A program made the position numbers. A stretch of DNA of 64,000 nucleotides from a plasmid: the sequence record NZ_CP023785.1, one strand, 5' to 3'. Positions 3,001 through 9,000 of this stretch are shown here, in pieces. Numbering within the stretch: the first letter of the stretch is position 1; each line of letters opens with the position of its first letter.

Positions 3001-6000
3001 CTTGCTACCTGAAGATGATGAAGGTAATGAATGGTTTAAAATGACGCTTATGAATGATAATGGAGACGAATTATCTGTTGAAGATACTTGGTCATATTTG
3101 AGTGATTATATTGTCAGCTTTGAAATCATTGAATTTGTAGCGGATAAAGAAGAATAAAAACTGGAGGAATAAATTTTACAGATAAAGGCTTAGAAGGAGT
3201 CACGATGATTAATAAAAAGGTAGTATTACCTTAGGCATTGAGTAAGGAATTTATTTAGTCTAATGGTGATAAGTCAAGATGAAATTTAAGATTTTCTTTA
3301 TTGAGTAATATGTTTTGAAGCGCACGAAACTAGACCCGATCAAAATCAAATTTTTTTCGGGTTGATTCAAGGATTTGCGTCAATAACGGATTGTTATTTC
3401 TCTATCACACTCCTTGGTGGCGTATAGAGTTGGTGTTTACGTAGTAGCGTATCCACCAGACGCGTAAATTTTCTTGCGGTTAGGACGAGTGCACGTTTGT
3501 GTTGATGCTTTGGAACCTCCTTATATTTACTTTGATAAAAAGCTTTGTATTCAGGAAGATAATTTTTTACAGAGTTGGCAGCTTCAACTAAGTAGTATCT
3601 AAAATATCGATTTCCTTGTTTTGTCAGAGGTGTATTTTGCGACTGATAGTTTCCAGATTGGTTCACTTTCCAACTTAATCCAGCGTATTTTGCCAATTTT
3701 GTCTGATCTTCAAATCTTTCGATTTGACCAATTTCAGCGATTAAACCGGCAGCATAGACTTTACCAACGCCTGGAATACTGGTTAAGCATTGATATTCTG
3801 GAATGACAACAATTACTTGTTCGATGGCTTTATCTAATTCTTTGATATTTTTTTCAAGTGCTCGTATTTCTCGTACGAGAACACTTAAAACAACATTAAT
3901 TGATTCTTGTGCAAGAGCACCTAGGCGGTAACTCATGGTAATTGCACGTTGAATTGCTTTAGCGATTTTTTCTGGTTGCTTGAAACGGCCTTTTCCTTTT
4001 TCTTGAAGTAAATCACAGAAAGCTTCTAAAGGAAGCTCAGCAAGTTCATCCAATGTGAAATCTTCCGTCATGAGTGAAATGAGGGTTGCACTAAAAAGAC
4101 TCGTCGATTCGTCTCGCATTTCTCGAGCAAGCGTATTACATTTGTACGTTAGATTTTCAAGAAAATGTTGCTTTGTACGAATCAATTGCTTAATAAGTTG
4201 ATAGCGAGTACGTGTTAAACGCTGTAAGGCCATGTATTTCTCTTCTTTGATAGGGGAAGTTGTGAATCGTTGAATACGCAAGAAATCAGCGATTCTTAAT
4301 GCATCGTTTCGATCAGTTTTATTCTCATCAAACATGCGACTAAATTGTTTCACCCGAAAAGGATTTTCAATCGTTACAAGTGTGTTGAGCTTCTTTAGTT
4401 TCTCATCTTCATGAAAAAACATGGAAGGATGGAAGCTGTACATGGACGTTGACTCCATGCCAATCACAATTTGATCAAAGTGGTAGCTGTCATTGAATTC
4501 AAGAATTGTTTCTCGTATGAATGAAGCACCTTCGATGTCATTGGCAACAGAGATTTCAGATAAGATAGACAATTGATTGTCGTCTGTTAAAAAACAAACA
4601 TCTAGTTTTTCAGAGCTAACGTCAATACCGACAAATAATTTCATGGAAGAAGGACCTCCTTTCGATATAAATTTTGGAAAATGCTTCGATACTGTGGGAT
4701 TTCCCAGAAACTCACTGTATAGCCACAACCTCGCCTAATAGAATACGGTGATAAAAGAGCTAGAAGCTGCCTTCCAAACTACTATTTGAAAGTCTAGTCC
4801 ATTATCGAAACAGCTAATGAGTTGGTAGTGATAACAGTGGTTCGGGTAACAGACTAAACAGGGTAGACAAACGCTACAGGAGGAAATAGCAAATTCCCGT
4901 TGGATCCTTTCCATACATCCATTGTACTCTGAGAAATCACACAATATCGAAACAAATTCCGTTAGGAATGTGTTATTCAATAAATTTTATAATCTAGAAA
5001 CATTTTGAATAAAAACTATTAGACAAATGATATTTTACGAGGAGGAAACGGACATGGCAGAAGAAAAAGAACCACTAGACAATAGTCGCTTGGGAAAATC
5101 CAAAAGAAAATTAGTACGATTGCAAAATGAATTAAACGAACAAATTGAGAAGATGTTTGAACACCAGAGAAAGACCAACGGTCAGCCAATGAACGATAAG
5201 AGAAATGGGCATTCTTGGTTTAGGCAACAAGAACGTTTAGAAAACAAAGTGCATAGTCTGAGAGAAGAGATCAAGCAACAAGAAAAACAGGTAGAAAAAC
5301 TTGAAAGACAAGAAGAGCTAAAGGAAATGGGCTATAACAAGTACGGCGGCCTGGATATGACAATCGAAAATATTCCAAGAATCAAAGAAGAAATCGAACG
5401 CTTTGAAAAAGGTGAATCGACTTTTTCAGCCGCTACGATCCGAAAATACCAACGGAAATTGGAAACATTAGAACAGCTGAAAGAAAGATCAGAAAAAGGA
5501 AAAGAAAATCTTCTTCCTGAAGTACAAGCAATTATTGACAGCGGACGAGTGACGCAATGGAAAAAAAATCCAACCATTTATTTTTTGAAAGACTATCGAA
5601 AAGTTGCTTTAGAACTGAATGAAAACGGGGGATTTGAGGAATCAAAAAAATACCAAGCCACGTCGGAAGAGGAAAAAGCAGCTGTTCGTGAATTACTTGA
5701 AGAGGCTGCGCCAACTGATTCTTTGAAGGAGAAAGAAAACGATCATTTCTATCGAGTAGAATTCAACGAAAATGATCCAGAAAAAGGATTGAAAAGTTAT
5801 GGTGGGGAGATCGTAACATTAGAATTGATCGATCAACTCAAAACGTTGGATAACCAATACGCCGCAGAAGCAGGTTATTATAAATTCTATTTTGAAGAAG
5901 TGAAGAACGGAGAAGTAGTCGATCAGATCCGAATGGATCTAGGGGATGGCGTCAACAGTAATCAACCCATCTATTTAGAGTTAGCAAAATTGTGCGAACA

Positions 6001-9000
6001 AGTACCTGAAAAGGAACAAAAACAAACGGTCAAAAATGAACCTGTTTCGAAAGAACAAATGCAGTCGAAAGAAACAAAAACAAAACAAAAGGGCTATCAA
6101 AAACGAACGGCAGAAGAGATTAAGCAAGAAGTCAAATCCCTTTCGCAACAGGCACTGGATGCGGTGAAAAAGCATACCCATTCTCCTGAAGACGTGAAAG
6201 AACTTTTGAATTTTATGTCTCGTTTTCCAGAACGATCCTTTAGAAATCAATTATTGATTGAGGAACAATTTCCAGGTGCAACGGCTTGTTTAGGTCGTGC
6301 TGCGTTGAAAAAAGAAGGAATCTATATCAAAAAAGGGGAACAAGGGAACAAGATCTTTGTCAGAAAAACGGTCAAAGGATTTTATGAGAAAGGACGTGGC
6401 TTTGTTCGAGAAACAGAAGCTACACCAGAAGATAAAAAACGAATCGAAAGTGGTCAAATCGAAGTGATCAAAAAACCTTACTACACGATTGAAAAAGTGT
6501 TTGATATCACACAAACACAGTTAAAACCTGAAGACTATCCGAAAATCTTTCCGAACCGTGTCTTTGATTTTCAATTGGATAAAAAAGGACAGTCAGAACT
6601 TCAAGCTGGGATTCAAGCGGTAGCCAACAATATTGGAATACAAATTCGAGATATGACAGAAAGTGAAGTCTATCAAAGAGAATTAGGACAAGCACGGGGG
6701 GCGTATGTTCGTAACGAATTTACTGGCGAAGAAGAAATCGTCATGAATACTCGAAATACTCCTACGCAGCATTTAGCTACAAGTATTCATGAATTAGCCC
6801 ATGCAAGAATGCACAAATTTTCAGAATTAGATACCGCAACTAAAGAATTGCAGGCAGAAATGACTTCTTATATTGTGTGCAAACATTTTGGAATGGACAC
6901 TTCGGAGAAAGCTATTCCTTATATTGCAGCATGGACGAAGAATGGTCAGACGTTGGATGATAAGGAAGCGGCGGAACGTGGGAAAATCATGAATGATGTC
7001 AGCCGTGTCGCAAATGAATTCATTCAAACCATTTCTAATGAAATCAATCAATACAGAGAAAGAGAACCAGAGATCCAACCAGCAGAAGTGAAGCAGGAGC
7101 ATAAAAATACTGTAGAAACGGCAGAGAATAAGAATATTGTGCCCGTTGGTTCACTTTGGATCGACAAGAAAGACGGGAAAGTAATGGAAGAAGATACGGG
7201 TCGAACGTTACATTTGAAGGATGCGGCGTTTATTGAAGATCCGCAGCATAATCAAGTGATTTTAAAAGGAAAAAGTTATGGAAAAGAGATTCAAACGGCG
7301 TTACCTTCAGAAGAATTTGCGCTAGGAAATCCATTCCGATTTTCACTTGAAACAGTGTCAGAAGTGGCCAAACGAAAAAATGAAATCTATTATGAACAAC
7401 AATTGTCACAAAAAGAACGCGTATAAAACAAGTAAAAAAGACTATCTGAAAAACGGATAGTCTTTTTTCTTTTGGGAGGTTTGAAAATGACCGAAAAAAA
7501 AATGAGTCTTATTGATCGATGTAAACAGATCGATATAGTGGATTTTGCTCGAAACAATGGAATGGCTGTAGTCAATAAAGGACGAGACTATCGCTTAGAA
7601 GACCATGATTCATTTGTTTTTGATCGAAGAAAACAACGTTTTTATTGGAACAGTCAAAATATTAGTGGCGACATTATTGAATTAGCTAAACTTTTTTTCA
7701 TAGACAAAGAGATCCAAGACTCTAAGCAACAATTTAAAGCAGCCACAGATTTTATTCTAAAGAATGAAGACAAAACAGAACGAGTAGAAAATCTTCATTT
7801 TGAGACAGAAAAGTACAAAGATCACCCCGTTGATTATCAACCACTCACAGAAAAAGGAAGGAATTATCTGAAGGAAGAACGAAAACTACCAGAGTGGCTG
7901 ATTGATTATGCAGAAAAAGAAGGGTTGATTGCCGAACTAAAGCCAAAACATGAACGGCAAAATTTCTTAGTTCGAGACGATCGTTTAGATCATGCGGTCG
8001 CCTTTTTATGGAAAGATCCACAGACAAATGAGACAGTAGGGGCGAGTTATCAAGGAACGTTCATTGATTATGAACGTTTTGGTGAGAGAGGCACATATAA
8101 GCATATAGATAAAAATTCGACAGCGAATCATGGCTTTAACCTAAAGATCGGTGACCCTAAGCAGTTAAAATTTTTTGAGAGTAGTATTGATTTACTTAGC
8201 TATGCTGCACTAAATCGTGATCAGTTAAACGATACGTGGTTAGTTTCGATGGAAGGGTTAAAACACCATGTGATCAGTCATTATTTTGGTGAGGCAGTAT
8301 CTGAATTGAGAAAGAAACAAGCCTTTCCTCAATCCATCGAGATTTGTGTGGATAATGACCGTGCAGGACATATTTTCTACGAAAAAGAACAATTAATGGG
8401 CGCAGTTGATCCATTTACGAATCAGAAAGTACGTTGTGAACGAGGAATCGCTAATGATTGGCAAGTGCCAAAAGAATACAAAGTCATTTATGAAGAAGTC
8501 GCAAAAGAAGAAAAGATCACACCAGAAGCTATTATGGCCATACACAAGACAGAAAACAATCTGCAATTAACGAACCAATTGGTTTCCGCTCACAAAGTAA
8601 ATGCGTCTTTTGGTCAGCAGCTTTCTGTTAACGATTCAATAGAAGCTATTAATTTGAAAGATATTTGTAGAGAAGTCGCAAAAGAATTAAAAGCTTGTGA
8701 ACGCGTGGATGGTACGTACGATTTTGATCGTTTTTATCAAGAAAAAGGGGATATTAATGCTCAGATTCTTTTCTCTTATAAAGCAGAACAATACTACAAA
8801 GGCTATAAAAATCATGAACATGAATTTGTACCTGAAGTAAAAAAGGATTGGAATGATCAATTGAAGCATGAAATCTACCAACAAGAGATCAGAAAGCAAA
8901 AACGTGCCATGTTGTTTCAACAAGGTAGACAGCAAGAAAGGGAGTGAAATCGTCATGATGAAAACCGTTATTTTAGCAGAAAAACCGTCACAAGCGAAGG

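Follow-up and report, generated by a model that had tools for sequence, protein, structure and literature searches.

In the 64,000-nt window analysed here, a continuous stretch of the plasmid record NZ_CP023785.1, two co-resident plasmids of E. faecium, a megaplasmid and a conjugative plasmid, have probably formed a cointegrate by one crossover in a block of sequence that they share. The megaplasmid parent is non-conjugative, repUS15/pLG1-like and of the E240 type; the other parent belongs to the pMI1 group and has the length, 54,822 bp, of a common conjugative plasmid of E. faecium. The large duplication in the window reflects ordinary cointegrate formation between plasmids, or else a join made during assembly, rather than gene conversion within a single plasmid.

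An exact repeat with an abrupt right edge

Pairwise comparison showed that window positions 3254-7932 and 58076-62754 form a direct repeat of 4,679 bp with 0 mismatches and a spacing of 54,822 bp. The preliminary description of this region, made by inspection of the sequence, had placed a perfect duplication at 3259-~7930 and 58081-~62752, which is essentially right; the 5 extra bases on the left (TTTAG) belong to a similar target flank, and the insertion sequence (IS) proper begins at 3259. The block contains an IS110-family element, an ArdC-like gene (ArdcN plus a zincin-like metallopeptidase region; 5054-7426 and, in identical form, 59876-62248, both on the plus strand), and the 5' part of a toprim gene (~149 codons). 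Profile matches and alignment identify the latter as a Toprim/DUF3991 primase-like gene, present as the 54.8-kb-plasmid allele at 7487-8947 and as the megaplasmid allele (WP_002353594.1 type) at 62309-63778, both on the plus strand.

The first mismatch between the copies falls at 7933/62755. The alignment that the preliminary description had proposed for mapping the identity step gave 0 mismatches up to 7932 and, from there to the window end, 82.3% nucleotide identity (198 mismatches and 23 gap positions in ~1,250 columns). A change from 0 differences over 4,679 bp to ~18% divergence cannot be due to chance. The sharp switch noted inside an open reading frame is thus located between 7932 and 7933, at about codon 149 of the toprim gene, and the two primase-like proteins, which had been called diverged and given as 491 and 494 aa, indeed have these lengths from an upstream TTG (486 and 489 aa from the PGAP start) and are 86.3% identical. 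To the left of the repeat the flanks of the two copies are unrelated. That boundary had been assigned to the IS110 end, and this holds, since the two parent plasmids have unrelated sequence beyond the IS on that side.

The window is the exact sum of two deposited replicons

The whole window can be rebuilt, with 0 mismatches in total over its 64,000 nt, from NZ_CP017793.1 positions 1-7932, a rotated NZ_CP017794.1, and NZ_CP017793.1 positions 7933-9178, these being the separate records of the megaplasmid and the small conjugative plasmid of strain E240. The two repeat copies are spaced by the full length of the inserted NZ_CP017794.1, a complete circular permutation of which occupies 3254-58075 (0 mismatches); positions 3249-58070 likewise represent the entire 54,822-bp plasmid NZ_CP066423.1 at 99.98% identity. 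The 4,679-bp block is identical in the two separate E240 replicons.

Two complete replicons therefore lie in one molecule, and a Pfam search of the window retrieved two RepA_N initiators and one MobL relaxase. The initiator of the megaplasmid (1-1041, plus strand) opens its replication module, here called X (1-3258, plus strand; 0 mismatches to NZ_CP017793.1), in which PGAP annotation and Pfam also place a TraE-like gene (1865-2197, plus strand; PGAP) and a DUF5406 gene (2816-3157, plus strand; Pfam). The initiator of the 54.8-kb plasmid lies at 23195-24280 on the plus strand. A homologue of positions 548-3258, module X' (23784-26798, plus strand), is 85% identical to X at first and 98.7% identical over the last 447 bp, so that X and X' constitute a second, interleaved direct repeat with a spacing of ~23,540. 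Following X' is a 31,282-bp module of sortase/pilus, type IV secretion (VirD4-like) and MobL/MobP2 relaxase genes (26799-58080, plus strand), which is absent from the megaplasmid and from 23,540-bp derivatives of the small plasmid. After the second copy of the shared block, the megaplasmid backbone occupies 62755-64000 (plus strand), with 0 mismatches to NZ_CP017793.1 positions 7933-9178.

We located the un-fused parent type with a synthetic junction query. The un-fused megaplasmid junction, running from DUF5406 into the IS, ArdC and the megaplasmid toprim allele, was present at 100% identity in 19 megaplasmid records among the matches listed, 15 of them perfect matches, and for many of these records the source strain also holds a ~55-kb plasmid. 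In the series of related isolates E232, E240 and E243 (n = 3) the two plasmids were deposited separately. The arrangement of the window was not found in any record of the plasmid collection: the best coverage of positions 1-25000 in a single place was 97% for small plasmids and at most 72% for megaplasmids, and the small plasmids with 97% coverage have no counterpart to the first 566 bases of module X, the remainder of which they match at only ~86%. Searching the literature retrieved no description of a fusion between these two plasmids. Two records considered as the megaplasmid parent, pHJP554-1 (NZ_CP083474.1) and E7040 plasmid 2 (NZ_LR135220.1), were rejected since they carry a small-plasmid-like toprim allele; CP131124.1 (211 kb), considered as a second cointegrate, was rejected as a different multi-replicon record without the megaplasmid RepA.

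The IS110-family element and its junctions

The first copy of the IS is 1,783 bp long (3259-5041, minus strand), with boundaries defined from 13 insertion contexts, and its recombinase gene (3394-4644, minus strand) encodes a DEDD (RuvC-like) N-terminal domain (DEDD_Tnp_IS110, PF01548, 1.4e-25) and a Transposase_20 C-terminal domain (PF02371, 1.1e-23). Read in the recombinase orientation, these 13 contexts have a left flank ending in TCCTC and CT at the start of both the IS and the right flank. The second copy (58081-59863, minus strand) occupies its cognate site A upstream of ArdC. A right end at 5022, suggested by the IS-free plasmid NZ_LR135309.1, which aligns from 5019, was rejected for 5041, because ten chromosomal copies and two copies at a second site, B, all end at 5041 and form the same 1,783-bp unit. 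The 19 bp remaining in NZ_LR135309.1 are an IS scar. A search of genome contigs for the IS end returned one 509-bp contig.

Module X terminates in ATTTATTTAG, the left half of site B. The unoccupied site B lies at 26789-26808 (plus strand), where ATTTATTTAG is followed by GAGGAAAATT in the Shine-Dalgarno region of the next gene. At the end of ATTTATTTAG the first module copy passes into the IS and the second runs on as GAGGAAAATTAGATG into an intact gene, as the preliminary description had seen; positions 2812-3258 and 26352-26798 match at 98.7%. Its further point, that the IS marks a rearrangement junction rather than a simple insertion, is borne out by the hybrid flanks of the first IS copy, which has site B (after DUF5406) on its left and site A (the ArdC ribosome-binding site) on its right. 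Site B is occupied by the IS in NZ_CP066631.1 and NZ_LR135257.1, both of them two-IS plasmids.

A side result concerns the specificity of this 1,783-bp IS: its insertion sites are Shine-Dalgarno sequences, and it contains bridge-RNA-like guides that match them. The bridge RNA's predicted target-binding loop (4854-4886, minus strand) has a 9-nt 5' guide, UUUCCUCCU (4878-4886, minus strand), and a 7-nt 3' guide, UGUUUAG (4854-4860, minus strand), on either side of a GUAG...CUAC hairpin. As a sequence match, the two predicted guides, 17 nt apart around the hairpin, follow the guide rule of Durrant et al. 2024 (PMC11208160), and the geometry of the predicted loop agrees with that study. Several features parallel IS621 as described there: a DEDD plus Transposase_20 recombinase, predicted guides located upstream of the recombinase gene in non-coding sequence (a 5' guide of 9 nt with the same sequence as the left target and core, and a 3' guide of 7 nt complementary to core and right target), and the core dinucleotide CT. 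Unlike in IS621 (PMC11208160), the putative programmed target is a Shine-Dalgarno sequence (TGTTT-AG-GAGGAAA) and not a REP-type repeat, and a literature search brought up no IS110 element described as targeting Shine-Dalgarno sequences. Scanning the IS against Rfam matched no model, the only sub-threshold hit (SAM-II) being due to chance, and a search for the donor-binding loop in the expected part of the non-coding region gave no match of at least 7 nt to the joined IS ends. The predicted pairing of guides with Shine-Dalgarno targets would make a tidy natural example of bridge-RNA target programming.

Recombinants of the two plasmids and the proposed route of fusion

Two records carry recombinants that require fusion of these two plasmids. 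One is the megaplasmid NZ_CP066674.1, which corresponds to the window without 23,540 bp, has its crossover between 2857 and 3051 and then goes on as the E240 megaplasmid (1 mismatch in 9,540 bp). The other, NZ_CP066578.1, is the small plasmid except that its sequence from 7933 to ~9800 is the megaplasmid allele. The existence of NZ_CP066674.1 therefore indicates that such cointegrates do form and resolve. Deletion products of 23,540 bp are also on record (NZ_CP066670.1 and NZ_CP066655.1), and the arithmetic agrees (54,822 - 31,282 = 23,540). Integration of a 23.5-kb plasmid into a NZ_CP066674.1-like megaplasmid at X/X' was considered as a source of the window and rejected on the DUF5406 alleles, because X in the window has megaplasmid alleles at 3051-3209 and both candidate molecules have the small-plasmid DUF5406 allele.

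In the starting state, both plasmids carry the identical block of IS110, ArdC and the 5' part of toprim. A single reciprocal crossover anywhere within it, presumably dependent on RecA, would insert the whole small plasmid into the megaplasmid and leave the block as a direct repeat on both sides, spaced by the plasmid length. The sequence does not show where in the block this crossover took place. At 7932/7933 the pre-existing shared block reaches its right end. As the separate parents already have this step, it did not arise in this molecule and is not the point of the present crossover; it is probably a relic of an earlier exchange between the lineages. On the left, the block ends with the IS, which has two cognate Shine-Dalgarno targets in the backbone, after DUF5406 and before ArdC. 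Recombination between directly oriented IS copies at these sites removes the 31,282-bp transfer module, as is seen for the small plasmid, and an older deletion of this kind probably gave rise to the junction of DUF5406 with the IS in the megaplasmid. Fusion would place the transfer genes in cis with the megaplasmid, which could then be carried across by conjugation, and resolution at X/X' would leave a megaplasmid with the transfer module.

Alternative explanations

A smaller but appreciable chance attaches to an assembly artefact, in which two plasmids that are separate circles in the isolate were run together during assembly at the identical 4,679-bp block. Such a false join would likewise give a window made up without mismatch from two replicons, as is seen with the separate E240 records; the arrangement is unique in the plasmid collection, and a 4.7-kb repeat at 100% identity is a classic source of false joins when few reads span it. 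However, 4.7 kb is normally spanned by long reads, and the natural recombinants NZ_CP066674.1 and NZ_CP066578.1 need a physical fusion of the same two plasmids; since they exist, the fused form is biologically expected, at least as a subpopulation.

The preliminary description had read the step as recombination or gene conversion between paralogous leading regions of one plasmid, homogenising 4.7 kb and stopping in the toprim gene. Homologous recombination stands as the class of process, but the paralogues do not: the copies are the same locus of two replicons, each with its own RepA, and their distance of 54,822 bp is exactly one plasmid length. Such an event within one plasmid is very unlikely. 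It would fit the sharp step within an open reading frame, and in the past a homogenising exchange probably did make the shared block, given that ArdC differs by 28 to ~60 SNPs in other plasmids of the two lineages. Yet both the step and the identical block are already present in the separate replicons, and the sequence left of the block is not homologous, so the block is not a patch within diverged homologous sequence. What the window holds is thus not a homogenised patch made within the molecule and flanked by diverged homology on both sides. Least probable of all is a fusion by the IS110 recombinase acting on two IS copies, for instance by the donor-arm-only ('half-match') recombination reported for IS621 (bioRxiv 10.64898/2026.08.31.748434), in place of host homologous recombination. 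Both copies have an apparently intact recombinase gene and bridge-RNA-like guides, and a crossover at an IS end would yield the same sequence. The canonical reaction, however, joins a donor circle to a target and not two integrated copies, the 4.7 kb of perfect homology is ample substrate for RecA, and the crossovers of NZ_CP066674.1 and NZ_CP066578.1 lie outside the IS, at 2857-3051 and ~9800. Nor is the duplicate exactly the IS, as in a transposase-made cointegrate: the IS measures 1,783 bp and the repeat 4,679 bp, running 2,891 bp past the IS into ArdC and toprim.

Discussion

The cointegrate that we favour resembles textbook cointegrates formed by homologous recombination in several respects: two complete replicons are present, the inserted one is bracketed by direct repeats of shared sequence, and the structure is resolvable by recombination at either repeat pair. 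Conjugative helper plasmids carry non-mobilisable plasmids by means of such cointegrates, a process termed conduction, and here too the fused form would have the transfer genes in cis with the megaplasmid. Unlike in the textbook case, the shared sequence is a 4.7-kb block of IS, ArdC and 5' toprim sequence of common backbone ancestry, and not just an IS. In the IS1216/IS26 family the transposase itself makes cointegrates, with the duplication limited to the IS and, in the copy-in route, a target duplication; IS110-family elements insert from a circular intermediate. In IS1216/IS26-family cointegrates of enterococcal plasmids (e.g. PMC6952201, PMC12711152), as in the window, co-resident E. faecium plasmids are fused with an IS copy at each junction. 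In contrast to these, the duplicate in the window extends 2.9 kb beyond the IS, which is of the IS110 family.

The two replicons match the pMI1 group and the repUS15 megaplasmids of clinical E. faecium in the Dallas collection (PMC10117061). At 1,086 bp the rep gene at 23195-24280 is as long as that of pMI1, and both the 54.8-kb form and its 23.5-kb derivative fall within the 23-62 kb over which pMI1 plasmids range; in a term search of that paper's main text, cointegrates, fusion, recombination and IS110 did not occur. Public records contain the separate parents, the fused form of the window, two kinds of resolution product and deletion derivatives. A striking sequence feature is thereby explained by an ordinary process, which corrects the idea of a conversion tract within one plasmid, and for genome curation the window flags a join across an exact repeat that is worth checking.

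More tentatively, the IS110-ArdC-toprim block together with X/X' may act as a recurrent, reversible docking system between a non-mobilisable hospital megaplasmid and a small conjugative companion, a possibility to which we would give rather modest odds. If so, recombination between IS copies, placed by a Shine-Dalgarno-directed bridge RNA, would delete the 31-kb transfer module, and fusion at the block followed by X/X' resolution would restore it; the megaplasmid would then alternate between being conjugative and being non-conjugative, and would travel between strains as a cointegrate. The cointegrate itself points to two plasmid lineages that exchange backbone segments, and to a route by which a nominally non-mobilisable hospital E. 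faecium megaplasmid can gain a physical link to a complete transfer system.

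The window combines sequence of two Enterococcus faecium plasmids

Database comparison matched all of the window sequence to plasmids of Enterococcus faecium. Positions 3249-58070 represent the whole of a 54,822-bp conjugative plasmid, p55_54kb (NZ_CP066423.1; 99.98% identity), so that the repeat spacing equals one plasmid length. Self-comparison of the window found 3254-7932 and 58076-62754 (4,679 bp) to be base-for-base equal, with starts 54,822 apart, confirming the perfect duplication that the preliminary description had placed at 3259-~7930 and 58081-~62752. The step in identity, which had been left to be mapped, lies at 7932/7933; the first mismatch is 7933/62755, from which the copies are 82.3% identical up to the window end (pairwise comparison).

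The repeated block contains an IS110-family element (3259-5041 and 58081-59863), an ArdC-like gene (5054-7426 in copy 1) and the 5' end (~149 codons) of a toprim/DUF3991 gene, which spans 7487-8947 at copy 1 and 62309-63778 at copy 2 and whose two proteins are 86.3% identical. The left edge of the block is the IS end, since past this point the two copies have unrelated flanks (DUF5406 in the megaplasmid, relaxase-side genes in the small plasmid). A second repeat pair is interleaved with the first: the megaplasmid replication module X (548-3258) and its homologue X' in the 54.8-kb plasmid (23784-26798) are 85% identical at a spacing of ~23,540, climbing to 98.7% in the final 447 bp.

A synthetic query for the un-fused arrangement (megaplasmid flank 3109-3258 joined to copy 2, 58081-63150) gave, among the matches listed, 19 megaplasmid records at 100% identity (15 of them perfect), 150-220 kb in size, with the arrangement at window-equivalent coordinates; many of these strains, among the same matches, also hold a plasmid of ~55 kb. 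In strain E240, joining megaplasmid NZ_CP017793.1[1-7932], the rotated complete plasmid NZ_CP017794.1 and NZ_CP017793.1[7933-9178] reproduces the window with 0 mismatches in 64,000 bases, and both replicons carry the 4,679-bp block identically. The structural decomposition of the window into two replicons is certain. The window encodes two initiators of the RepA_N type and a single MobL/MobP2 relaxase. Its replicons correspond to groups known from the Dallas collection (PMC10117061), the repUS15 megaplasmid and the pMI1 group; searching the main text of this paper by term turned up no mention of fusions between the two.

A perfect 37-bp direct repeat within the megaplasmid repA CDS (416-452 and 521-557, 105 bp apart) may represent the origin repeats of the RepA_N replicon, and in the small plasmid, clusters of short direct and inverted repeats (21420-21612 and 22896-23107, 70-88% identical) on either side of the gene for ParA and its small partner are possible partition or origin sites. 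The leading region of the small plasmid carries an IS200/IS605 element (15765-17323) with TnpA and the TnpB RNA-guided nuclease, and the minus-strand gene for a CAP-domain surface protein (36064-38121) has an internal 119-bp repeat (37190-37308 and 37403-37521, 72% identity). The megaplasmid topB copy (NZ_CP017793.1 8877-10976; window 63789-64000), a 699-aa ORF compared to 734 aa in the small plasmid, is absent from the record's CDS list and is probably a pseudogene.

The IS110 junction and a 31-kb deletion

The IS spans 1,783 bp (3259-5041), with the same ends in ten chromosomal copies, located via the exact recombinase protein, and in two copies at site B. A length of 1,764 bp was rejected, as these twelve copies end as a 1,783-bp unit. 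Its two cognate targets in the backbone are CCATTTGTTTAG|GAGGAAACGGACATG before ArdC (site A) and GGAATTTATTTAG|GAGGAAAATTAGATG after DUF5406 (site B). Two small plasmids of independent collections, NZ_CP066631.1 and NZ_LR135257.1, have directly oriented IS copies at sites A and B (in NZ_LR135257.1 the site-B copy was read directly and the site-A copy inferred from features listed under its database match). The two sites are 31,282 bp apart, and 54,822 - 31,282 = 23,540, the length of plasmids NZ_CP066670.1 and NZ_CP066655.1, which are the IS x IS deletion products; both have the 28 ArdC SNPs seen in NZ_CP066631.1.

The earlier proposal that the copy 1 IS marks a rearrangement is borne out by the hybrid flanks of the DUF5406-IS-ArdC junction. 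These flanks match those of the deletion plasmids; the megaplasmid junction would most simply reflect the same IS x IS deletion in the megaplasmid lineage. The uninterrupted target is still present in five megaplasmid records, with intact site B followed by sortase genes: NZ_CP066674.1 and four further records, the latter at 97-99.8% identity.

In the "IS-free" small plasmid NZ_LR135309.1 (~5998-6030), a 19-bp piece, ACAAACGATATTTTACAAG, lies between TTTAG and GAGGAAACGG; it differs at 2 positions from the final 19 bp of the IS and resembles a scar left when the IS was lost imprecisely via repeated CTAA. A 509-bp contig of a Lysobacter genome (NZ_JBHRZC010000020.1) matches the recombinase-proximal end of the E. 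faecium IS at 99.8% identity and is likely contamination of that assembly.

Target choice and putative guides

In 13/13 contexts compared, the IS has inserted at a Shine-Dalgarno sequence, with the downstream start codon 12-13 nt past the IS end. The pattern in recombinase orientation is ...TCCTC^CT...IS...^CT-A..., and without the IS the target reads T(T/A)AG^GAGGA(A), where ^ marks the IS boundary. The IS terminus ...ACGAG is followed by GAGGAAA, such that the downstream gene keeps a ribosome-binding site. We found no report of Shine-Dalgarno insertion by an IS110-family element in the literature searched.

Upstream of the recombinase gene, in non-coding sequence (4854-4886, minus strand), UUUCCUCCU and UGUUUAG lie either side of a GUAG...CUAC hairpin. 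The former has the same sequence as the left target plus the CT core, and the latter is complementary to CTAAACA (core plus right target). Bridge RNAs of IS110 elements are reported to have this geometry (PMC11208160). These segments are predicted to be bridge-RNA-like target guides, with perfect matches of both to site A and one mismatch to site B. No donor-binding loop was identified with confidence in the IS non-coding region, and no Rfam model matched the IS.

Proposed origin of the probable fusion, and related recombinants

A single reciprocal crossover between two circles sharing 4.7 kb of perfect homology would produce the observed structure, linearising the small plasmid inside the large one and leaving it bracketed by direct repeats of the shared block. 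Because the block is identical in both parents, the crossover may lie anywhere in it and its point is unreadable; the step at 7932/7933 therefore marks where a pre-existing shared block ends. Homologous recombination, as proposed in the preliminary description, is supported as the class of process, but the step was not made here by recombination or gene conversion between paralogues, the block being already identical in the separate E240 replicons. ArdC of other members in both lineages differs from the block by 28 to ~60 SNPs, and the block itself is probably the product of an earlier exchange between lineages.

In form, the fusion is a textbook homologous-recombination cointegrate, with two co-resident plasmids in one molecule. 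Unlike in IS1216/IS26-type cointegrates, the duplication here extends 2.9 kb past the IS. The literature searched yielded no description of this E. faecium plasmid fusion. We consider it fairly probable that the window is a biological cointegrate of co-resident plasmids. Two points speak against it: the arrangement of the window occurs in no record of the plasmid collection, and a false assembler join of two separate plasmids, which we regard as unlikely, would also match both separately deposited replicons exactly. On the other side, two recombinants are evidence that such fusions are real in this population.

One of them, NZ_CP066578.1 (~15677-17550), is a small plasmid with a patch of the megaplasmid toprim/topB allele (window 7933 to ~9800, ending inside topB), the product that would be expected from cointegrate resolution by a crossover right of the block. 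This plasmid also has 1.47 kb that the 54,822-bp form lacks, made up of two small genes and a recombinase. The other, NZ_CP066674.1 (Dallas 163_1 p1), corresponds to the window with 23,540 bp removed: from 2812 to 40460 it has 1 mismatch to window 26352-64000, its crossover lies within X/X' between 2857 and 3051, and it continues as the E240 megaplasmid (1 mismatch in 9,540 bp). It is the predicted resolution product of a window-type cointegrate at the X/X' pair. Resolution at X/X' leaves the 31-kb pilus/T4SS/relaxase module with the megaplasmid, and this megaplasmid has regained it.
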